Numbered from the stretch's first letter, positions 3,103-19,735 are shown. The stretch: DNA of 26,247 nt from Methanomicrobiales archaeon (GCA_028678555.1 JAJRDF010000006.1:1-26247); one strand, 5' to 3'. Notes: a model not told the origin generated them from the sequence alone. Numbers and translations are program-made.

Positions 3103-4962
3103 TCACACCGGCCGCAGCCGGATGGCCTCGCCGTTCTGGAGCCTGCGGAGCAGTTCCTGGGCGATGGTGCTGGACCGGGCCAGGTGGATCTCCCCCTCGT
3201 CCGCCACCGTGGCGGTGAAGAGGTACTCCTTCCCGGCAAAGAGGTCCACGATCTTCCCGCGGTACTCGGGGGCGATGATGGCCAGGTTCTTCCGGTCGGT
3301 CTTCACCCGGACACCCCCTTCCAGCGGGATCTCCTCTTCCTGCGGCGGCTTCTCCAGCTCGGTACGGGGACGGATGTCGATCCCGACCCCCAGCTTGTTC
3401 ACGATGCCCGAGACGTTCTTCCCGCCCTTCCCGATGGCGGCGGGGACGTCCTTGTCATCGATATACACCACGGCTTTTGTGTCGGTGACCATCCGTACAT
3501 CCACGAAGCCGTCCGTGTACCGGCCCAGTTCCCGCTGGATCTCCTTTTCGGTCAGCTTCCGGGAGACCTTCTCCTCGCCCTTCTGTACCGGGGCTGTGGT
3601 GGCAGCCCCCTCCCCGCGGCCTGCAGGGAGGAGGATCGTCTCCCCGTCATACCGGAAAATCTCCAGTTCCGTCTCACCCGTTTCATGGTTCCGGACCGAG
3701 ATCACCGGTTTCATGTTCACCTCCCCGCTCATGCCGGAGGGGATCCGGAGGCCCAGGTCCAGCTCATAGACCCGGGTGATCTCCCCGTCGATCATGAAGA
3801 AGATCGTGTGGATCACCTGCGGGAGGACAGAGAAATCCACCCGGGCCAGGAACCGCTGGAGGGCATCCTTCACCTCCAGTGCATGGACCACCCCCACCAT
3901 GCCGATCCCGGCGAGGCGCATGTCGGTGAAGACCCCGAAATCCTCGTTCCTGCGCAGCTCGTCAAAGACGACGTACTCGGGCCGCATCAGCATCAGGACC
4001 TCGGCAGTGCCCTGCATGGATCCTTCCAGAGACGTGTACTGGGTGATCTGGTCCGGTACCTGCAGGTCCCGCGGAGACTCCATGGTCTTCACGACATAGC
4101 CGTGATCCGAGAGGAACGTGGCAATGGACTGGGCGAGCGTGGTCTTCCCGGAACCCGGCGGTCCCGCAATCAGTACTCCCCTTTTGTCGCCGATCAGGCG
4201 CTTCTTTAAGATCCCGTTCTTCTGGAAATCATCCAGCTTCATGGACCGGAGGGGCCGGATCGCCGAGATCTCGGTCCCGTCCGAGAAGGGTTTCCTGGCG
4301 ATGGCGATCCGCATGGCCCCGATCTGGACCACGGTGACCCCCCGCTTCTCCATCTCGATGAAGCCGGTGGGGTCCCGCTTCGCCCGCTCCAGGATCTCCT
4401 GCGCCATGGCCCGGAGTTCGTACTCCATGGAGGGGGCATCCCGGATCTTCACCAGGCGCATCTCCTTCATGGTCCCCTTCCGGGCTACGGGCGGCATCCG
4501 CTCCTTCAGGTAGACCGCCTGGGTCTGGTCATCGAAATACTGCTCGATCCCCAGGGGGGGAAATTCCCCCATCTGGGGTTTCAAATACAGGACATCCAGC
4601 CCCTTGGCCTTGGCCACCTCGGCCTGGACGATATCGCTCGTGATGAACCGGGCACCTGCCTCTATCGCCGCGTTCCGTATGATCGCATCGATCTCGCCGC
4701 CGCTGGCCAGCTTCACCTGGTCCAGGGTGGGGCGTACCCCCACGTACTGGATCGTGACCGCCCCCTCCCGGGACATCCGGGAGAGCTGCTGGAGTTCCGC
4801 GAGCCCCAGGAAGCCTATCTCCCTTCCCTGGTTTGCCTGGGCTTCCAGCTCCGCAACCACGGCCTCGGGGATGATTATCGTGGCATCCTTGTATTCCCCG
4901 GTCTTGAGCATGCCGGTGATCCGGCCGTCGATCACCGCACTGGTATCCGGCACCAGTTTCAT
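3103..4962 (-). CDS. PIN-domain/ATPase/KH protein (PINc/VapC family ATPase, PINA-like)
   Basis: N-terminal PIN (VPDTSAVIDG...AELE...FITSD), Walker A GPPGSGKTT, Walker B VVFDELR, C-terminal KH GxxG (AIGKGGKNV). RBS GAGGTGTGA upstream. Confidence 0.9.
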   Translation of the reverse strand: MKLVPDTSAVIDGRITGMLKTGEYKDATIIIPEAVVAELEAQANQGREIGFLGLAELQQLSRMSREGAVTIQYVGVRPTLDQVKLASGGEIDAIIRNAAIEAGARFITSDIVQAEVAKAKGLDVLYLKPQMGEFPPLGIEQYFDDQTQAVYLKERMPPVARKGTMKEMRLVKIRDAPSMEYELRAMAQEILERAKRDPTGFIEMEKRGVTVVQIGAMRIAIARKPFSDGTEISAIRPLRSMKLDDFQKNGILKKRLIGDKRGVLIAGPPGSGKTTLAQSIATFLSDHGYVVKTMESPRDLQVPDQITQYTSLEGSMQGTAEVLMLMRPEYVVFDELRRNEDFGVFTDMRLAGIGMVGVVHALEVKDALQRFLARVDFSVLPQVIHTIFFMIDGEITRVYELDLGLRIPSGMSGEVNMKPVISVRNHETGETELEIFRYDGETILLPAGRGEGAATTAPVQKGEEKVSRKLTEKEIQRELGRYTDGFVDVRMVTDTKAVVYIDDKDVPAAIGKGGKNVSGIVNKLGVGIDIRPRTELEKPPQEEEIPLEGGVRVKTDRKNLAIIAPEYRGKIVDLFAGKEYLFTATVADEGEIHLARSSTIAQELLRRLQNGEAIRLRPV

Positions 4963-10209: not shown

Positions 10210-12142
10210 ATGATGCACACCGGGAAGGTAAGGGGCAGGTTCAGCGAGGTCCTGCCCAAGGTGAGGACTCTCAGGGGGGCGATGCGGGTGATCACCCCCG
10301 AGGGAAGGGGCGTGGTACTGGTGGACATGGGGAAACCGATGGCGTCCTACCTGAAGGCGGGAGAGACCACGTTCCGGGGCAGCGAGTCGCTGGAGCTCCT
10401 TGAATCCGAGCCGATGGCCGAGTACGACCTGGTGGCCTACGAAGAGGACGAGTTCCGCGAAGCGATGGGTATCTGTGCCAGCGAGGGCCTCCGGCTGGAG
10501 GATTACCGTGCCGCTGCGGCGGTGACCGGTGGGGCAGAGAAGGGAGGCGGCCTCCTGTCGAACCTCTTCCGGAGGTTCTCCGGCGTTGGGAATGAGGCAG
10601 AGACCGCTCCGTCCCCCCGTCCCCGGCCCCTGAAGGAGGAGAAGGTGCCGGAGCCGATCCCTCCCGTGGTGAGCCCTCCGGAGGCGGCCCCGCCGGTTGC
10701 GAAACCGCCGGAGCCGTCGGCCATGGAAGAGAAGGAACCCTTCCCGGTGGGAATTCCCGCGGCCTCCCCGTCCCCTCCCCCCGCCCCAGCGCAGGAGGAG
10801 TCCGAGCTCTCGGCCATCGTGAAAAGACTCTCCCGATCCCGCGGGGTATCCCCGCTACCCGCGGAGACACCTCCGCCTCCTCCCGTGTCCGCACCCTCCC
10901 CGGTCCCCGTAGGCACCCCCGCGCCCCGGGAGGAAGGAGCCCCCCTTTCCGCCGGTGAACCGGAGGAGGAGAAGGAGGAAGAGGAAGCAGCGGTCCCGGG
11001 CGATGACACCCTGGACGAGATTCTGAGACGGTACAAATCCGGCGGGCAGGCGCTGGTTGTGGCATGGGGAGAGCAGGGGGAACAGTCCCGGGTGGAAATG
11101 AATGCCATGATGAAACGGATCACACGGCTGGACATTGTCTCCTTCAGGAAGGAGATGGAGGACGTGAAATCCACTGCCCTCCGTGACAGCGCCGCAGGGC
11201 GGGAGGCCCGAGACCTTCCCGGGGAACCGGTTGCCCGCGGGGCGATTCCCCCTCCCCCTGCCCCGGAGAAAGAGATGGTGCCGGTGGAACCGGTCCCCCA
11301 GGAACCAACCCGGCCATCCACGGATATGGACGACCTGAAGGCATTCATCCGGCAGCTGGAGAGCCTGGATCTGCAGACCCGGGAGCCGGTGCCGGAGGAG
11401 ATACCGGTCGTGCCCGTGGAGCCCCCGGCCCCGTCTCTCCGGCCGAAGGAGACCCCCGCTCTCACGATCGTTCCCGGCGTGCTCGGCAGCCTGCCCCCCC
11501 GGCCGAAGGAGGTTCCCGAATCCCCGAAGGCCGGGTCCGGAAAGGCGCTGCCACCCATGAGATTCGGGGAGCCCCTGGAGGCGGACCGGAAAGTGGAACG
11601 CCGGCCAGTCGTTCTCCCGGAGTCCCCTGCAGGTGCGGAAACGCCCGCCCGGGAGGTGATCATCCAGTGGAAGGAGGATGAGCCGCTGTCGGGAGCCGCT
11701 GCGGGGACAGCCACCCTGCCGGGGGCCCCCCAGGCAGAGGCGCCCCGGGGCCGGCCGGTGATCCTGAAACGGGAGATCGATATCCGGAGGGTCGAACGCC
11801 GGCCGGAACGGCCACGGGCTGCCCTTCCGCTCCTGGATGAGACGAAGATGGAGAAGATCATGCGCCAGCCCGGAGTCATCGCCGTAGGAAGGGTTTGCGA
11901 TCCAGTCCGTCGGAAAGGCGGACTTCGACCAGGTGGCAGCGAATGCAGAGGACCTGCTCCGGGCCGGTACCAAGATTGCATCGGATATCCATATCGGAAC
12001 CCTCCACCAGATCATTCTCGAGAGCGCCGGAGGGAAGCTGATCATCTCCCCGTACGGGGATCTGAACCTCTGCGTCTTCACCGATGCCGATGCCAACCTG
12101 GGACTGATCCGCGTGGCAATCCGGTCCCTGCAGGCGGAGTGA
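10210..12142 (+). pseudogene. DUF2226/PATAN-like N-domain + Pro/Glu-rich linker + C-terminal Roadblock domain, interrupted by a frameshift at ~11887 (real lesion or sequence error)
   Basis: Frame 0 reads ...IMRQPGVIAV to 11886. The Roadblock sequence continues in the +1 frame from 11888 (EGFAIQSVGKADFDQVAANAEDLLRAG...NLGLIRVAIRSLQAE*, TGA ends 12142). Confidence 0.8.
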
Positions 12143-12147
12143 TCCGG

Positions 12148-12831
12148 ATGAAAATACCCCACTGCTCCACGACGGCGACCCGGAGGGGGGTAACGGTCAG
12201 GGAGCTCCTGGACCAGCTGACCACCGGCAGGTTCACCGGCTACTGTGCCATCCCTTTCGGCGAGAATATCACCTCCCTTGTCTTTGAGGGGGGCATCTGC
12301 CTCCTGGCCGAACACCTGGGGCAGGGGGGATATCCGGGCCTCCAGAAACTGGCGGTCATGGGAGAGGCCCGGGTGGATGCGGCACTCTGCGAATTCACGA
12401 CAACCCAGCTGGCCGTCACCCTGAAACTGAACGACCGGTGCCGGGTGGTCCTGCCGCCCGCCTCCCCCCAGGCCGGAGCCGGTACAGCCTCACGGGACAC
12501 TTTCGTGAGACCGGTGAAGCTTGCAGGGGTGGGCGCAAAACCGGTCCGGGTCACGAGCCTGCGGACGAAGGGGGTCCCTGCCGGGCATGCCGGGGCCGGG
12601 GGCCGGGGAAAGGCCGCCCCGGGCCAGATCGTGGACCGGAAGATAGGCCGGACCGAACAGCCCATCGGCAGGAAGGAGGAACCCATCACCAAGTCAGCCC
12701 TGGAGAGCCTGAAGACCATCAAGGATTCCTTCAAAACCGATGCCGCGGACCTGCTGGAGGAGCTGAACCTGGGCCACCTGGTGGTGAAGGGACAGCCCAA
12801 AAATGCCGGGAAAGAGGAAGAAAAAAGATGA
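12148..12831 (+). CDS. DUF2226/PATAN-like domain protein, 227 aa, with basic linker and helical C-terminus
   Basis: Own RBS GGAGTGA and ATG 12148. Pattern VRELLDQLTTGRFTGYCAI...LVFEGGICLLAE...GYPGLQKL. The domain name comes from pattern recognition only. Confidence 0.75.
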   Translation: MKIPHCSTTATRRGVTVRELLDQLTTGRFTGYCAIPFGENITSLVFEGGICLLAEHLGQGGYPGLQKLAVMGEARVDAALCEFTTTQLAVTLKLNDRCRVVLPPASPQAGAGTASRDTFVRPVKLAGVGAKPVRVTSLRTKGVPAGHAGAGGRGKAAPGQIVDRKIGRTEQPIGRKEEPITKSALESLKTIKDSFKTDAADLLEELNLGHLVVKGQPKNAGKEEEKR

Positions 12832-12890
12832 AATGCAAGGGAACCTGTGAGTGAAATGACAGCAACGTATAAGTATTTGGATAATGAGAA

Positions 12891-12909
12891 TTTTATAGAG
12901 TTTATAAAT
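12891..12909 (+). promoter_or_regulatory. TATA box(es) for minD
   Basis: TTTTATAG and TTTATAAAT (12901-12909) in an AT-rich gap. The second ends 23 nt before ATG 12933, consistent with a leaderless start. Confidence 0.6.
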
Positions 12910-12932
12910 CGCTCTGTATGAGCAGGTGCGAG

Positions 12933-13721
12933 ATGTTCAGAGCTTTCACCATTGCTTCCGGAAAAGGCGGTACCGGGAAAACCACAGTAACCGTCAATCT
13001 GGGCACATCACTGGCCCAGCTGGGAAAGGAGACCTTCATCCTGGATGCCGATATCGGCATGGCCAACCTGGGGCTGGTGCTGGGCCTCGAAAGTGTTCCC
13101 GTCACCCTCCACGAGGTACTGGCAGGAAAGGCCAGCATCGAGGATGCCATCTACGAGGGGCCCAACGGCCTCAAGGTGGTCCCGAGCGGCATCTCGCTCC
13201 AGGGATTCCAGAATGCCGATCCCGAGAAGATGAAGGATGTGATGAGGGACCTGGTGGGGAGGAGCGAGTTCCTCCTCATCGATGCCCCGGCCGGCATCAG
13301 CAAGGACGGTGTCGTTGCCCTCGCCATCGCCGATGAGGTGGTGCTCGTGGTGAACCCGGAGCTCTCCTCCATGGCCGATGCCCTGAAAACCAAGATCCTC
13401 ACCGAGATGGTGGGGGGGAAGGTCTACGGGGCCATCCTGAACCGGGCAGGGATGGAGAACACCGAGCTGCGCAGGCACAGCGTGGAGGACGTCCTGGGTG
13501 TCCGGGTCATCGACATGATCCCGGAGGACGCCAACGTGAGGAGGGCGGCCGCTTATAAGACACCGGTTGTGATCAAGTACCCCACCTCAGGCGCGTCGCG
13601 GGCATTCCGGCGGATTGCCGCTGACCTGGCCGGTTCCGAGTACAAGGAAGAGAAGACTGCGGTCCAGGAAGGGTTCGTGGATCGCCTGGCACGGACCCTC
13701 TTCGGGGGCGCCCAACGGTAG
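12933..13721 (+). CDS. minD: MinD/ParA-family ATPase (archaeal MinD-like)
   Basis: Deviant Walker A SGKGGTGKTT, DADIGMANL, LLIDAPAG and a C-terminal amphipathic helix GFVDRLARTLF. Start at 12933 is favoured by TATA spacing; 12918 is the alternative. Confidence 0.92.
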   Translation: MFRAFTIASGKGGTGKTTVTVNLGTSLAQLGKETFILDADIGMANLGLVLGLESVPVTLHEVLAGKASIEDAIYEGPNGLKVVPSGISLQGFQNADPEKMKDVMRDLVGRSEFLLIDAPAGISKDGVVALAIADEVVLVVNPELSSMADALKTKILTEMVGGKVYGAILNRAGMENTELRRHSVEDVLGVRVIDMIPEDANVRRAAAYKTPVVIKYPTSGASRAFRRIAADLAGSEYKEEKTAVQEGFVDRLARTLFGGAQR

Positions 13722-13760
13722 ATCGACGGAAATCTCGCACCAAATATCATTATTTCAATG

Positions 13761-13775
13761 TTTTTTTCTTTTTCT
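13761..13775 (+). terminator. Oligo-T tract, candidate archaeal terminator after minD
   Basis: T-rich run about 40 nt after the minD stop. Confidence 0.5.
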
Positions 13776-13816
13776 GACTCAATTCAATTACCAGTATAAA
13801 AGACAAAGTTTATTAC

Positions 13817-13843
13817 TATCATGACGATGATATATATTTATAT
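13817..13843 (+). promoter_or_regulatory. Inverted repeat abutting a TATA box upstream of the pilus ATPase unit
   Basis: TATCAT-gacg-ATGATA (13817-13832) immediately followed by TATATTTATAT (13833-13843). Confidence 0.55.
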
Positions 13844-13909
13844 CCGCAACATCCGTCAGAGGTTACACCCTCCCCAGGATTTCCGTTCCCGCGAGGTTGA
13901 GCGGATGAG

Positions 13910-14542
13910 GTGAACAACCGTACGTCTGAGATTTCCAGCATCATCGATGAGGTGCTCAGCAACGCGACCTTTGTCGCCAGTTATCCCCTGGACGAGCTGA
14001 TCCGTTCCGCCGAGGAATCCGGAGTGAACGGGATCGGCGTCTATGAGGAGAAGGAGCGGAAATTCTTTCTGATGTTCGAGGCGGGTCAGCCGGAAGGGGT
14101 CATCTACGTGGACCCCAAGGGAACCCTCTTTGGTGACAAGGCCGCATTCCTCCTCTCGGGGAAAGAGACCTTCGAATTCTTCCAGGTCAGCCAGCCGATG
14201 GTGAATGCCCTGGCATCCCGGTGCAGGGTCTTTGACAAGAGCCACCTGAAGAAGCGCCTCCGTGAGGAGCTCCCCACGTTCGGGGGAAAGAGGCCGAGCC
14301 CCGGGGTCCTCTGCCTGATCATTGTGAAAGACGGTGTCACCCAGACGGGGATCCGGGTATCCATCAAGAAGGGCCGTCAGATCATTGCGAGCGATATGAC
14401 CACATCCGATGGAAAGGTCTGCTTCAAGCTGCTCAACGGGAAATATGACTGCACGGCCGTGGACCGGGATCAGGCGATGTACACGTTCATGGTTGATTTC
14501 AATCACCGGTATGCGGAGACCACCATAGAAATTGGGGGGTAG
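13910..14542 (+). CDS. Hypothetical protein: DUF2226/PATAN-like N-domain plus beta-rich (carboxypeptidase-regulatory/transthyretin-like) C-domain
   Basis: GTG start with GAGG upstream. N-half VNGIGVY...FFLMFEAGQPEGVIY...GTLFGDKA; C-half GIRVSIKKG...TTSDGKVCFKLLNGKY. Only 3 nt separate it from the ATPase start. Confidence 0.7.
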   Translation: MNNRTSEISSIIDEVLSNATFVASYPLDELIRSAEESGVNGIGVYEEKERKFFLMFEAGQPEGVIYVDPKGTLFGDKAAFLLSGKETFEFFQVSQPMVNALASRCRVFDKSHLKKRLREELPTFGGKRPSPGVLCLIIVKDGVTQTGIRVSIKKGRQIIASDMTTSDGKVCFKLLNGKYDCTAVDRDQAMYTFMVDFNHRYAETTIEIGG

Positions 14543-14545
14543 CAG

Positions 14546-17500
14546 ATGTCTCAAATGGATCCAAAGAAGGAAGAACTGAATGCAATGATGAAACGCCTGG
14601 GCCTGCTCGGCATGGAGACCGCCGACGAGGCCCCGGCTGCACCGGCCGGACCGGTGGTCCAGGTGGAGAAACCGACTGTGGTCCGGGCAACGGCGCCGGA
14701 AAGTGCCAGGGAGCAGGAAGTACCCGTACGGCCGGGGGAGAGCATTCCTCCGGCCGCAGCGGCACCGAAGGCAAAGAAACCGTCTTCCCCGCCCTCCGTG
14801 GGCCCGGAGGATCTCTCGCCCATGATGGACCGGCTGAAGCGGCTGGACCTGTCCACATTCCGGCAGGAGATCGAGGAAGCGCCGGAACCCGCCGCGGTTC
14901 CTGTGAAATCCCCTCAGGCGGCACCCCAGCCAGCCCCCCAGGATGACCTCTCTCTCCTCATGAAGCGGCTGGAGGGGGCTGTCCCCCCGAAAGAACCTGC
15001 CCCCCAGGCCGTCAGGGCCACCCGGGCCGAGGCTGCCCCGCTCCCCCAGGCACCCCCCGCCCCGGCCGCGGCCGTCCCGGAGGATGACCTCTCTGCCCTC
15101 ATGAAGCGGCTCGGCGGCGGCCTGCCACCCAAGGAGGCCGGGAAGAAGACCGTCCGGGCCACCCGGGCCGAGACTGCCCCGCAGGCAGCCCCCGTTCCGC
15201 CCGCAGCGGCCCAGGAGGATGACCTCTCTGCCCTCATGACGCGGCTGGAAGGTGTCACGAAGGATACGGGAGCCGAGCCCGAGGTCCGTGCCGCGGAACC
15301 CCGGGCGGCTCCGGCACCGGCAAGAAAAGTCCCCCAGGCTCCTGCAGCTCCCCCCGCCGCACGAGACGGGGATCTCTCCACCATGATGGACCGCCTGAAG
15401 CAGCTGGATCTGGCCATCGGCGAGGAGAAGCCGGAGGCGAAAGCGAAGGAAACGCAGGCCCCGCCTCCCGCCCTGGAGCCCCCCACGGGTCCCGGCGACG
15501 AATACGAGGCCCTGGTGCAGCGCCTGGGATCCTTCCGGCAGGAGATGAAGGCTGCCAGGGATGCCCGGACCGCCGAGACCACTGGGAAGGAGGAGTCTGC
15601 CCCTGCGCCCCGCCAGCGGGTAGGGGGGACGAAGGCGGTCCAGGGCGCCGCGGTCACCGCCGGGAACCTGGACGCCATGGCCCGCAGTGCGGGCACGGCC
15701 TCAGCGGCGGACCAGGAGGTCACCCAGGTCATCGACGATATCTTCAAGGTCCACACGGACACGTCCCTCGCGGAAGGCAAGGTGAATGTCTTCGATTCGC
15801 TCCACGATATCGCCGAGTCGGGGACCGGGGAGGCGGCAATGGAGGAGACCCCGTCGAAGCCTGTCCAGGCCAAGCGCACGCGCTGGTCAGAGATGGAGAC
15901 TGAGGAGGCCGAGGAGGCTGAGGATACCATCGTCTCTGTGGACGAGATCAAGGATATCTCTGACCTAATCCTGCCCAAGGGAGCCACCTTTGCCATCGAC
16001 GAGGTAAAGCTCCACGAGAGGACCGCCGTCTTTGATGTGAAGGGTGGCGGTATCGCCGGGAAGGTGCCCTCCGAGATGATCGAGAGCTGGCACTCCCAGC
16101 TCCCCATGGGGGTCATCAAGGACGTGGTTATCGGTGGTGAAGGGGCCCCGGAACAGCCGAAGGGGAAGGCAGGGGGGATCCTCGGCAGACTGAACATCAT
16201 GAAGGTGATCCGGCCCGAGATCGAGGAGTACAACCCCAAGATCCACGGCCCCCTGGTGGACCTGAACATCCGGGCCCAGCCCACCATCGAGGAGGTGGAG
16301 ATCTACCCGGTGAACGAACCGTATGCCTATATCCGGATCATCCACGACAGCACCTCCCACGAGTACACCTACCAGGTGCTGGAGCCCCAGCTCTCCCCGG
16401 CCGAGAAGGAGCTCCTGGTGGAGATCAAGCAGCGACTCTTCGAGACCCTGGAGGTGAATACGAAGGACATCACCAAGGATTCGGCAAAGAAAGCCATCCG
16501 GGGTGCAGTGGACGGGATCCTCCGGGATTACGGCATCTCACTCTCCCCGGCAGGGAGGGAGAAGATCCTGTACAACATCGAGAAGGAGTTCCTGGGCGAC
16601 GGGCTCGTGGACCCCATCATGCACGACAAGTACATCGAGGATATCTCCTGTGACGGGATCAATATCCCCATCTTCGTGTACCACACCTCCTATGAGAATA
16701 CGAAGACCAACCTCATGTACCGGGACGAGGAGGACCTGGATTCCTTTGTCACCAAGATGGCGCAGCGGGCAGGCAAGCACATCTCCATCGCCGAGCCCAT
16801 CCTGGACGCCACCATGCCGGACGGGTCCCGTATCCAGATGACCCTGGGTGCCGAGGTCACGGCCCATGGATCCACCTTCACGATCCGGAAATTCCGTGAA
16901 GAGCCCATCACGCCAACGGATCTGATCGAGTGGTCCACCTTTTCGCCCCTCTCCATCGCCTACCTCTGGCTGGCGGTGGAGAGCGGGAAATCGGCGATCT
17001 TTGCCGGGGGTACCGCATCCGGGAAGACCACGTCGCTCAATGCCATCTCCCTCTTCATTCCCCCGATGGCCAAGATCGTTTCCCTGGAGGATACACGGGA
17101 ACTGAAGCTCCCCCACCCCAACTGGATAGCCTCGGTCACCCGGGACTCCTTTGACACGGCGGGGAAAGGGCAGATCGACATGTACGAGCTCCTGCGGGCT
17201 GCACTGCGGCAGCGGCCGGAGTACCTGGTGGTGGGCGAGGTGAGAGGCAAGGAGGCCCTCACCCTGTTCCAGGCCATGTCGACAGGCCACGTCACCTATT
17301 CCACCATCCACGCTGACTCAGTGGCGAGCGTCGTCCACCGTATCGAGAACGCGCCCATGGACGTGCCCCGCAACATGCTCTCTGCGCTGAACCTGGTGGC
17401 CGTCCAGACCCAGGCCCGGATCGGAGGCCAGCGGATCCGGCGCTCCAAGCAGATCATCGAGATTCTGGATATCGACCCGCGGACGAACGAGCTGATCACG

Positions 17501-17773
17501 AACGAGGTCTTCCGGTGGTATCCCTCCACGGACGAGATCCGGTACTCCGGCAAGTCCTACATCCTGGAGGAGATCATGGAAGAGCGCGGCTGGAGCGAGT
17601 CCCGGATGAAGGAGGAGCTGAAACGGCGCCAGGAGCTGCTGGAGTGGATGCGTCTCAAGATGATCCGGCACTACAAGGACGTGTCGAAGATGCTCATCTC
17701 CTACTTCCGGGATCCCGAGGCGGTCATTGAGATCGTGCGCAAGGACCTCTATGCCAAGGGAGAGGCCGCATGA
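14546..17773 (+). CDS. Type II/IV secretion (type IV pilus) ATPase, VirB11/PilB/ArlI family, with ~540-aa low-complexity N-terminal extension
   Basis: IEDISCDG, DATMPDGSRIQMT, FTIRKF, Walker A GGTASGKTT, SLEDTREL, ALRQRPEYLVVGEVRG and MSTGH...TIHA motifs. Confidence 0.95.
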   Translation: MSQMDPKKEELNAMMKRLGLLGMETADEAPAAPAGPVVQVEKPTVVRATAPESAREQEVPVRPGESIPPAAAAPKAKKPSSPPSVGPEDLSPMMDRLKRLDLSTFRQEIEEAPEPAAVPVKSPQAAPQPAPQDDLSLLMKRLEGAVPPKEPAPQAVRATRAEAAPLPQAPPAPAAAVPEDDLSALMKRLGGGLPPKEAGKKTVRATRAETAPQAAPVPPAAAQEDDLSALMTRLEGVTKDTGAEPEVRAAEPRAAPAPARKVPQAPAAPPAARDGDLSTMMDRLKQLDLAIGEEKPEAKAKETQAPPPALEPPTGPGDEYEALVQRLGSFRQEMKAARDARTAETTGKEESAPAPRQRVGGTKAVQGAAVTAGNLDAMARSAGTASAADQEVTQVIDDIFKVHTDTSLAEGKVNVFDSLHDIAESGTGEAAMEETPSKPVQAKRTRWSEMETEEAEEAEDTIVSVDEIKDISDLILPKGATFAIDEVKLHERTAVFDVKGGGIAGKVPSEMIESWHSQLPMGVIKDVVIGGEGAPEQPKGKAGGILGRLNIMKVIRPEIEEYNPKIHGPLVDLNIRAQPTIEEVEIYPVNEPYAYIRIIHDSTSHEYTYQVLEPQLSPAEKELLVEIKQRLFETLEVNTKDITKDSAKKAIRGAVDGILRDYGISLSPAGREKILYNIEKEFLGDGLVDPIMHDKYIEDISCDGINIPIFVYHTSYENTKTNLMYRDEEDLDSFVTKMAQRAGKHISIAEPILDATMPDGSRIQMTLGAEVTAHGSTFTIRKFREEPITPTDLIEWSTFSPLSIAYLWLAVESGKSAIFAGGTASGKTTSLNAISLFIPPMAKIVSLEDTRELKLPHPNWIASVTRDSFDTAGKGQIDMYELLRAALRQRPEYLVVGEVRGKEALTLFQAMSTGHVTYSTIHADSVASVVHRIENAPMDVPRNMLSALNLVAVQTQARIGGQRIRRSKQIIEILDIDPRTNELITNEVFRWYPSTDEIRYSGKSYILEEIMEERGWSESRMKEELKRRQELLEWMRLKMIRHYKDVSKMLISYFRDPEAVIEIVRKDLYAKGEAA
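14810..15412 (+). repeat. In-frame coding tandem repeat, five units of 132-153 nt
   Basis: GAT(GAC)CTCTC...ATG...CGGCT units start at 14810, 14942, 15083, 15218 and 15371, encoding DLS(P/L/A/T)(M/L)M(D/K/T)RL. A VRATRAE sub-repeat is also present. Confidence 0.85.
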
Positions 17774-18693
17774 ACAGTTACGAGCGGTTCTGTTTCAGGA
17801 TCCTGGGAGAGCGGGCCAAGAAGAGAAGGGAGGAGTTCCTCTCGCTCCGCAACAACCTGCTGAGGGGACGGATCAGCACCCCTTTTGAGGCGTACCTGGC
17901 CACGGCGTGGGTCAGTTCATTCCTCGGAGGGTTCCTGGCGGCTGCGATCCTGGGCCTCCTGAGTTTCTGGCTCAGGATCCCCGAGATGATCACCTACAAG
18001 GGGACGCTTCCTGAGTTCATGTACGGCATGTCGGATTACCGGCTGGTGGCAGGCACCATCCTCACCTTCCTCCTGGCCCTCCTCATCATCGGCGGGATCA
18101 TTTACCTGATCTTCATGGTGTACCCCAGCGTGGTGGCCGGGGAACGGCGCCGTAACATTGATGCCACGCTCCCCTACGCCATCAACTACGTCACCGCCAT
18201 GTCCACGGCAGGGATCACGCCGGCAGAGGTCTTCAGCCTCCTGGGAGACAGCCCCATCTACGGGGAGAGCTCGGTGGAGGCACGGTACATCACCCGGGAG
18301 GTCCGCGTCTTCGGTAAGGATCTCATGGACGCCATCCGCGTCGTCTCCACCGTGACCCCCAGTGAACGGATGAAGGAGTTCCTGCAGGGGGCGGTAGCCA
18401 GCATCTCCGCCGGGTCCAACCTCACCGAGTACTTCCGGAACAAGGCCCAGCAGTATACCCTGGAGAACCGGCAGTCCCAGAAGATGTTCCTGGAGACCCT
18501 GGGGCTCATCGCCGAATCCTACGTCACTGCGCTCGTCGCAGGGACGCTGTTCCTCATCATCCTGCAGTCCATCATGTCCATCATCGGCGGCGATACCAAC
18601 CCGTTCCTCCTCTACATCGTCATCTACCTGATCGTGCCCTTCGGGAGCATCATGTTCGTGGTCCTGATCTCCTCCATGACACCGGAGACGTAA
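17770..18693 (+). CDS. Type II secretion system F family (TadC/PilC-like) membrane platform protein
   Basis: ERRRNIDATLPYAINYVTAMSTAG...EARYITREVRVFGKDLMDAI with several TM helices. ATGA overlap with the ATPase. Confidence 0.92.
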   Translation: MNSYERFCFRILGERAKKRREEFLSLRNNLLRGRISTPFEAYLATAWVSSFLGGFLAAAILGLLSFWLRIPEMITYKGTLPEFMYGMSDYRLVAGTILTFLLALLIIGGIIYLIFMVYPSVVAGERRRNIDATLPYAINYVTAMSTAGITPAEVFSLLGDSPIYGESSVEARYITREVRVFGKDLMDAIRVVSTVTPSERMKEFLQGAVASISAGSNLTEYFRNKAQQYTLENRQSQKMFLETLGLIAESYVTALVAGTLFLIILQSIMSIIGGDTNPFLLYIVIYLIVPFGSIMFVVLISSMTPET

Positions 18694-18694
18694 C

Positions 18695-19735
18695 ATGAGC
18701 CTGAGTGAAACCTTCAACAATTTCCTGAACCGCAAGAGCTACAAGCGGGAGAATGTCCCGGAGATGGTGCTCAGCGATTTCGAACGCGATGAGGCCCATA
18801 TCCTGGAGAAGATCTCCTACCAGAAGAAGATCCGGGAAGGCCTGGGCAGGTTCATGAAACACCCGTTCCAGGTCATCCGCGAGAATCCCACCAACGTGCT
18901 GATCCTCTCCATCCCGATGGCAGCCCTGGTCTTCGTGGGCGGGCTCCTCCTCATGTTCATGAACAACAGCCTCCTGACCATCTTCACGGAAACGCTGGTT
19001 GACGACGTGATCTGCCTCGCGGTGCTGGTCGCCATCGTGCCCCTTGCCATCCTGGACTTCATGGAGTCAAAGCGGGTGAACAGCCTGGAGGAGGCCCTCC
19101 CCAACTTCTTCCGGGACGTGGCCGGTATGAACGACAGCGGGATGACACTGCCCAACGCCATCCACAACGTGTCCCAGGGCCATTACGGGGCCCTGACCCC
19201 CTACATCCGGCGGCTGAACTCCGAGATGTCCTGGTCGGTCCCCTTCGTGGAGGCCCTCCTCCGGTTCGGGAAACGGGTGGGGACCCCCCTGGCCCAGCGG
19301 GCGGTGGACCTGATCTCCAAGGCATCCAAGGCGGGGGGCGATGTCTCCGAGGTGCTCAGGGCGGCGGCCAACGACTCCTACGAGTTCTACAATCTGAAAC
19401 AGGAGCGGAGGAACAACATGCTCATCTACATGGTGATCGTGGTCATCTCGTTCCTGGTCTTCCTGTTCGTCATCGCCATCCTCTGTTCCACCTTCCTCAC
19501 CACCATGGCCGAGGCCGGGGCCAAGGCATCCTCGGCAGGCGCCGCGGCAGCCGGGTTCATGGGTGCTGTGGACATCCTCTTTTACAAGCGGATCTTCTCC
19601 CATGCCGCCCTGATCCAGGGATTCTTCTCGGGTCTCGTGGCAGGGCAGATGGGGGAGGGGAGCGCCGTCGCCGGCCTGAAATACTCGGCCATCATGCTCA
19701 CCATCGCCTGGATCACCTTCCGGTTCTTTATCTGA
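18695..19735 (+). CDS. Second type II secretion system F family (TadC/PilC-like) platform protein
   Basis: LEEALPNFFRDVAGMNDSGMTL, GGDVSEVL and HAALIQGFFSGLVAGQMGEG motifs. Confidence 0.92.
   Translation: MSLSETFNNFLNRKSYKRENVPEMVLSDFERDEAHILEKISYQKKIREGLGRFMKHPFQVIRENPTNVLILSIPMAALVFVGGLLLMFMNNSLLTIFTETLVDDVICLAVLVAIVPLAILDFMESKRVNSLEEALPNFFRDVAGMNDSGMTLPNAIHNVSQGHYGALTPYIRRLNSEMSWSVPFVEALLRFGKRVGTPLAQRAVDLISKASKAGGDVSEVLRAAANDSYEFYNLKQERRNNMLIYMVIVVISFLVFLFVIAILCSTFLTTMAEAGAKASSAGAAAAGFMGAVDILFYKRIFSHAALIQGFFSGLVAGQMGEGSAVAGLKYSAIMLTIAWITFRFFI

Follow-up and report, generated by a model that had tools for sequence, protein, structure and literature searches.

The motor ATPase of bacterial Tad pili, CpaF, has a disordered N-terminal region (NTD0) of ~79 amino acids (aa) with one short helix (Helix 0). 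Deletion of NTD0 of CpaF reduces retraction but not extension, and AlphaFold puts Helix 0 at the entrance to the nucleotide pocket (PMC11300603). Dimers of CpaE, a member of the MinD family, form a ring around CpaF (PMC13170226), and PodJ-CpaE-PleC is a proposed scaffold of the Tad machine (PMC12637624). A census of archaeal type IV pilus loci found FleN/MinD (arCOG00589) and Roadblock (arCOG02603) proteins to be recurrent nearby (PMC4858521). These neighbours have been noted without a mechanism, and almost no explanation exists for what positions or switches a type IV pilus motor in archaea. The present subject is a locus of this type on a complete 26-kb contig (26,247 nucleotides [nt]; GCA_028678555.1 JAJRDF010000006.1:1-26247; hereafter the window) from a Methanomicrobiales archaeon whose genome is 1.46 Mb and 78% complete. 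Within it a short amphipathic helix motif occurs seven times in the disordered N-terminal extension of a pilus ATPase and four times in the linker of a Roadblock scaffold protein. The element is unmentioned in the census cited, and literature searches found no description of it.

The likeness to CpaF is one of architecture, a Tad/Epd-type ATPase with a disordered N-terminus containing a short helix (PMC11300603). As in the Tad locus of Caulobacter, a MinD family gene lies upstream and genes for a TadB/C platform lie downstream. However, the extension is ~440 aa with seven helices, the same helix types are present in a second protein, and a further gene, g13910, is interposed between those for MinD and the ATPase. 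Unlike CpaE, the MinD protein here is without a receiver-like domain.

The core of the motif is [DE]-[DE]-L-S-x-[LM]-M-K-R-L-x-G. Two variants accompany it, a longer one, MMxRLxRLD(L/I)xSFRxE (type B), and an acidic one, D(D/E)LKxFIxxLExL (type C), and each of the three subtypes (core, long RLD..FR.E and acidic LK.FI..LE.L) is present in both proteins; a type-C-like element is also found in the ATPase of the sister genus. A first-pass annotation of the window had quoted 11 peptides, and translation bears it out: ten are exactly where it placed them and the other starts at 15497 rather than ~15498, the two proteins have an identical NAMMKR, and RLD..(S/T)FR.E is common to both. The linkers are Pro/Ala/Glu-rich as it described (P 13–18%, A 12–18%, E 10–13%). 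[A fifth scaffold copy, GLLSNLFRRFSG at 10549–10584, is helical in the AlphaFold2 (AF2) prediction and its position matches a motif of the sister genus, but it scores 0.2 bits and is not counted.]

The resemblance between the two proteins is beyond chance. A 23-aa stretch of the scaffold matches ATPase residues 89–111 with 83% positives (BLASTP, E=3e-4). The corresponding DNA (11105–11162 and 14820–14877, the long variant) is 74% identical over 58 nt, and for the NAMMKR element (11095–11117 and 14573–14595) 21 of 23 nt are identical (91%). Hidden Markov models (HMMs) were cross-tested over the 16,356 six-frame open reading frames (ORFs) of the genome, with non-self matches ranked. With a model made from the seven ATPase copies only, scaffold copies ranked second and fourth; with one made from scaffold copies only, ATPase copies tied for first and were also fifth and eleventh. 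None of 1000 composition-preserving shuffles reached the real cross-scores, whichever linker was shuffled. No other six-frame ORF in the genome exceeds 5.8 bits, true copies scoring 6–18 bits. In the 98%-complete genome of a sister-genus member the scaffold has four of the five best six-frame matches and the ATPase the other one, and in another genus the ATPase is the best match. A word-based database search with the disordered region retrieved ATPase orthologs only. Because the top matches are confined to the ATPase and the scaffold, the motif is not a background trait of low-complexity proteins.

Selection on the motif is apparent when it is compared with its surroundings. Between congeners identity is 90% for the motif, against 65% for the ATPase linker and 55% for the scaffold linker; in comparison with the sister genus the scaffold figures are 57% for the motif and 31% for the linker. 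Eight database orthologs of the ATPase, with N-terminal extensions 46–98% identical, have 4–7 copies and their order is kept. AF2 predicts helices at all seven ATPase copies, the residues being otherwise coil, in a full-length model that is poor overall (mean predicted local distance difference test [pLDDT] 46, with a shallow alignment). In the intact scaffold of the same genus, the N-domain and the Roadblock domain have pLDDT ~95 and the linker ~35, with helices at all four copies (69–87). For both proteins the baseline of ~30–35 rises to 66–87 at motif peaks. Conserved islands in fast-evolving, compositionally biased flanks, with local helix in predicted disorder, are what is expected of short linear motifs. 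Taken with the HMM and shuffle results, this substantiates the motif as a genuine, selectively maintained, helix-forming one in disordered linkers of two proteins of the locus.

The motif originated in the ATPase. ATPase orthologs are present in 40 of 41 genomes of relatives, all with an N-terminal extension (~200–600 aa), and in most orthologs of the order there is a positionally equivalent helix within the first ~25 residues. This helix grades from ELNAMMKRLG through KGLNSLLKRLGK to the basic and aromatic KKGFKSLFKRK and KKGWRSLFRKRR. This helix, at the very N-terminus of the chain in most Methanomicrobiales families, is the ancestral copy. The number of ATPase copies is 1–3 in most lineages, seven here and, by eye, ~9–10 in the sister genus (the motif HMM finds only 1–2 of the latter). 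Three consecutive ATPase copies are within tandem units of ~138 nt, from which it follows that arrays grew by duplication. An array of an ILGRIKKAE-type variant expanded separately in another family, and this independent expansion implies that selection favours multivalency.

The history of the scaffold is different in kind. In most lineages it is, ancestrally, a protein of 220–235 aa with a short, motif-free linker, and an insertion of ~450 aa with four to five copies is found only in this genus and the sister genus. As scaffold copies occur only in these two genera, the shared motif is a lineage-specific addition and not an ancestral link of the two halves of the locus. It had earlier been put forward as the strongest evidence that the halves belong to one system. 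That was an overstatement since what the two proteins share was added late, in two genera; the gene order Roadblock, scaffold, g12148, MinD, g13910, ATPase, TadB/C, which is conserved in several families, is stronger evidence. In two families the Roadblock/scaffold/MinD module is elsewhere in the genome; the ATPase there keeps its N-terminal copy and g13910 is still directly upstream of it. Within the order, most families have a g13910 homolog adjoining the ATPase. The ATPases of one outside family (f16) have a KGLS..IK-like motif immediately ahead of the core, and in three of the four f16 genomes searched a g13910-like gene is directly upstream of the ATPase. All genomes checked have MinD. 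Elsewhere outside the order (relatives L119, L121, L123 and L128) MinD is directly upstream of the ATPase and TadB, which is the bacterial tadZ-tadA-tadB order, and these ATPases are without the motif.

A motif that is genuine, conserved and confined to these two proteins within the genome probably tethers both of them, either to one partner or to the membrane. The interpretation that is favoured, tentatively, is that the helices are docking elements for a protein partner that the ATPase and scaffold share. The short amphipathic helices, set in a disordered Pro/Ala/Glu-rich chain, would fold upon binding and act as multivalent docking ‘stickers’ on flexible spacers, with one partner encoded in the locus. 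At the cytoplasmic base of the pilus machine an ATPase hexamer, with up to 42 copies, would in this way be kept joined to the Roadblock scaffold. The candidate partner preferred is the g13910 family, the ATPase neighbour in most families of the order and in f16 outside it, and the candidate that co-occurs best with the motif. Second comes a MinD dimer anchored to the membrane, for which CpaE encircling CpaF is an analogue, and third a Roadblock dimer, the analogue there being LAMTOR1 with its helices on Roadblock pairs. When a MinD dimer, ATP, g13910 and ATPase residues 1–36 were folded together the score was 0.00, which is evidence neither way.

Precedents for the second and third candidates are instructive as to what would be shared and what would not. 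The N-terminus of ParB, the contact helix of MinE and the N-terminus of FliM/FliY (with FlhG) are short helical partner peptides of ParA/MinD ATPases. They are short helices with basic residues at an extreme N-terminus, encoded near a MinD-type ATPase, and ATPase copy 1 has a like position and K-R. However, most copies in the window are internal and acid-flanked, and the MinD-adjacent ATPases outside the order are motif-free. In Ragulator (PDB 5Y39, 6EHP) Roadblock folds are combined with a largely disordered scaffold, LAMTOR1 (p18), and it is the short helices of the latter that do the binding, wrapping Roadblock heterodimers. Here, by contrast, the helices are on the linker of the Roadblock protein itself and on a motor ATPase, and the locus is without a GTPase. 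[The Dip oscillator was considered and rejected as it is unrelated to Roadblock. Mimicry of FtsZ C-terminal peptides was also considered; the two FtsZ tails of the genome end in FEIDFMK and GGLIDFL and are unlike the motif.]

The alternative that survives best, though rather unlikely, is membrane targeting: the amphipathic helices would bind the membrane weakly, in the manner of those of MinD, FtsA and MreB, with avidity coming from copy number. The motor and scaffold would be held beside the TadB/C platform and have a common destination but no common protein partner. Tandem membrane helices strengthen binding, and lipids stimulate the ATPase of archaeal FlaI. The equivalent N-terminal copies elsewhere are basic and aromatic (KKGFKSLFKRK, KKGWRSLFRKRR and repeated RIFPFWKRKKK types), which is as expected for this alternative, and copy 1, though the only terminal one, is ancestral. 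The extension of a paralogous pilus ATPase has GLFARLRSR and GFLSGLFGKK, a basic amphipathic segment is found phylum-wide directly before the core, and the MinD of the locus ends in a similar helix. Like the helices of MinD, FtsA, MreB and SepF, the N-terminal copies of other families are short, terminal and amphipathic as well as basic and aromatic, and it is in these orthologs that the positive charge and aromatics of a MinD/FtsA-type helix are found. The copies in the window differ. Net charge ranges from 0 to −2 in each of the seven ATPase copies and in two scaffold copies (the other two scaffold copies being +2), a single Tyr or Phe is present in three copies and no aromatic in the others, and hydrophobic moments are moderate (0.36–0.69). 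Of the 11 copies, ATPase copy 1, which is amphipathic, is N-terminal and ten are internal. The B and C subtypes are strongly acidic, acidic flanks are conserved, and the motifs are methionine-rich. The specific polar residues (D, S, K, R) are themselves conserved.

Docking on a shared protein partner is favoured because of this conservation of polar residues, the neutral to acidic character of 9 of 11 copies with few aromatics, and the occurrence in both proteins of each subtype, two of them strongly acidic. Charge and polar conservation would fit recognition of a protein better than binding of anionic lipid. Several considerations nevertheless weigh against it. The MinD genes directly upstream of motif-free ATPases outside the order mean that any coupling of MinD to the ATPase is independent of the motif, and the Lys/Arg- and aromatic-rich N-terminal copies in other families have a membrane-targeting look. 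The scaffold copies in two genera may derive from a single evolutionary event, in which case the co-expansion is one observation. Copying of DNA may account for some of the likeness between the two proteins, and the partner is a candidate only.

A more ambitious version, which seems distinctly unlikely, is that the arrays constitute a recruitment code by which the motor and the Roadblock/MinD module would co-assemble at the membrane in a hub, multivalent and possibly condensate-like. If true, bacterial polar hubs would have an archaeal counterpart whose valency is set by tandem duplication, and in it the Roadblock scaffold would compete with, or bridge to, the motor via the same helices. PopZ, HubP, FimV and PodJ are multivalent disordered scaffolds tied to placement of pili or flagella, and to that extent comparable. 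However, there is no sequence relation and no client repertoire here. The first-pass annotation had suggested docking or self-assembly, possibly in a polar hub; what holds of this is the conserved helical motif in two proteins of the locus, while a hub with many clients is made unlikely by six-frame scans in which only the ATPase and scaffold carry the motif.

Regulation of the motor by the helices is more improbable still. By this account they would bind to the core of the ATPase close to the nucleotide pocket, as proposed for Helix 0 of CpaF (PMC11300603), and adjust its activity or direction; the scaffold copies would reach that site in trans and so carry a signalling input. The CpaF-like architecture, with a short helix in a disordered N-terminal region, would accord with this as would the presence of copies on the ATPase’s own chain, and a motif in common with a signalling-type scaffold would be a simple route for control. 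However, one helix would suffice for control in cis, leaving arrays of 7–10 unexplained. Least probable of all is that the motif is a historical trace, a piece of the ATPase extension copied into the scaffold linker with the helices mere spacers: the DNA-level similarity, tandem ~138-nt ATPase units and restriction of the scaffold insertion to two related genera are as it would predict, but motif identity well above that of the flanks (90% against 55–65%) and of the sister-genus linker (57% against 31%), maintenance of copy order despite extensions as little as 46% identical, and independent expansion of arrays in another family are not.

The motif is best filed under two known kinds, the disordered N-terminal regions of Tad-type ATPases and arrays of short linear motifs. 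A conserved, countable helix motif on the disordered arm of a motor is a concrete handle that can be mutated. Natural variants in valency already exist, and in two genera the motif is also on a Roadblock scaffold. It also bears on CpaF, the bacterial Tad motor, whose disordered N-terminus is unexplained, though only two uncultured genera have the shared part.

The genes from the stand-alone Roadblock protein to the TadB/C-like pair are all on the + strand (Table 1). Named homologs of the MinD protein put the contig in Methanomicrobiales. The Roadblock protein is likely the dimer partner of the scaffold’s Roadblock domain. The ATPase consists of the disordered N-terminal extension (aa 1 to ~440), an N-domain and the core. 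By Pfam the T2SSE core, the PilB3-type C-terminus and the TadB/C-like genes downstream mark it as a secretion ATPase.

Table 1. Genes of the pilus locus and copies of the helix motif in the window.
Feature	Coordinates	Strand	Basis
Stand-alone Roadblock/LC7 protein, 123 aa	9835..10206	+	Pfam Robl_LC7, E=4e-16; directly upstream of scaffold in orthologous loci too
Scaffold, frame-1 part: folded N-domain (~aa 1–95), then ~450-aa Pro/Ala/Glu-rich motif-bearing linker	10210..11886	+	Translation, orthologs, AF2 of same-genus ortholog
Scaffold C-terminal Roadblock domain, frame 2	11888..12142	+	Pfam Robl_LC7, E=8.5e-8
g12148, separate gene, 227 aa, without Pfam family	12148..12831	+	Own ATG right behind Roadblock stop codon; separate genes in orthologs
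MinD/FleN-type P-loop ATPase with conserved C-terminal amphipathic helix	12918..13721	+	Pfam CbiA/ParA/MipZ; Methanomicrobiales homologs named MinD
g13910, 210 aa, unnamed archaeal family	13910..14542	+	Without Pfam match; neighbourhoods
Type IV pilus ATPase (Tad/Epd-like, PilB3-type), 1075 aa	14546..17773	+	Pfam T2SSE, E=8e-37, and PilB3_C
Two TadB/TadC-like platform membrane proteins	17770..19735	+	Pfam T2SSF on both
Scaffold copy 1, ELSAIVKRL	10804..10830	+	Translation; ortholog helix 193–206, pLDDT ~70
Scaffold copy 2, DTLDEILRRY, weakest	11005..11034	+	Translation; ortholog helix 273–281
Scaffold copy 3, long type B, MNAMMKRITRLDIVSFRKEMED	11098..11163	+	BLASTP to ATPase aa 89–111; ortholog helix 309–341
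Scaffold copy 4, acidic type C, DDLKAFIRQLESLDL	11329..11373	+	Ortholog helix 390–403; 10-residue block pLDDT 87
ATPase copy 1, ELNAMMKRL, ancestral N-terminal copy	14573..14599	+	Helix 6–17, top pLDDT within disordered region
ATPase copy 2, long type B	14810..14878	+	BLASTP partner of scaffold copy 3; helix 91–98
ATPase copy 3, DDLSLLMKRLEG	14942..14977	+	Tandem ~138-nt repeat unit; helix 134–143
ATPase copy 4, DDLSALMKRLGG	15083..15118	+	Tandem ~138-nt unit; helix 182–188
ATPase copy 5, DDLSALMTRLEG	15218..15253	+	Tandem ~138-nt unit; helix 225–234
ATPase copy 6, DLSTMMDRLKQLDL	15371..15412	+	Translation; helix 278–287
ATPase copy 7, DEYEALVQRLGSFRQEMK	15497..15550	+	Translation; helix 319–343

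The scaffold had at first been taken to be the single 873-aa ORF at 10210–12831. Its motif-bearing part stands, but the ORF is a chimera. In the DNA alignment with a genome of the same genus, 11 nt (CTCGGTCTTCC in the congener) are deleted after 11885. Due to this deletion the Roadblock domain is displaced to frame 2, and frame 1 is by chance open into the next gene, g12148. The ‘873-aa Roadblock scaffold’ is thus an artefact and not one protein. Four orthologs have the N-domain, linker and Roadblock domain together in frame as a single protein of 628–666 aa, and the Roadblock fold in the model of the same-genus ortholog has a Foldseek template-modelling (TM) score of ~0.8 to archaeal Roadblock, LAMTOR2 and MglB. 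The 11-nt deletion could be real or an error of assembly. Decoding in frame 1 across 11880–12150 predicts a fusion product of the scaffold with the following gene.

The first-pass label of PATAN-like (DUF4388) for three proteins of the locus was rejected on sequence comparison. There is no Pfam match for it even at E≤10, and g13910, g12148 and the scaffold N-domain have nothing in Pfam at that threshold. The protein atlas gave unnamed archaeal clusters only. The g13910 family and the scaffold N-domain show no relation to each other (hhalign probability 0.1%).

Some further helical segments were seen in the proteins of the locus and in relatives. The C-terminus of MinD (13668–13709, EGFVDRLARTLFGG) is an amphipathic helix, conserved in alignment, with a membrane-targeting look and a loose likeness to the long motif variant. 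Directly before the ATPase core, at 16172–16213, there is a basic amphipathic segment (GGILGRLNIMKVIR) with counterparts phylum-wide in orthologs (e.g. TWFERMFGG and KGLSQKIKGLFSR). This segment may be an older element from which the N-terminal motif came. The paralogous pilus ATPase (~41% identity; L113–L118, in the sister genus and others) has a disordered N-terminal extension of 220–420 aa with repeats of its own (GFLQKKGIR, GLFARLRSR, GFLSGLFGKK).

A possible third carrier lies in the archaellum operon, where the gene after ArlJ (contig C72 of the same genome, L053, 6882–8138) encodes a membrane-anchored protein with a long disordered middle. With 4.8 bits from the motif HMM and an hhalign probability of 16% it is not counted. 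Its tail of ~55 aa has three helices (DDLLSxL...DDxSLLRxLKG...L.EL..L) with weak resemblance to the pilus motif, and is conserved in 24 of 24 complete orthologs examined. On the − strand of the window, at 3103–4962, there is a gene for a 619-aa protein in which a PIN domain and a KH domain accompany a P-loop ATPase weakly similar to T2SSE, and this protein is conserved near the locus in several relatives.

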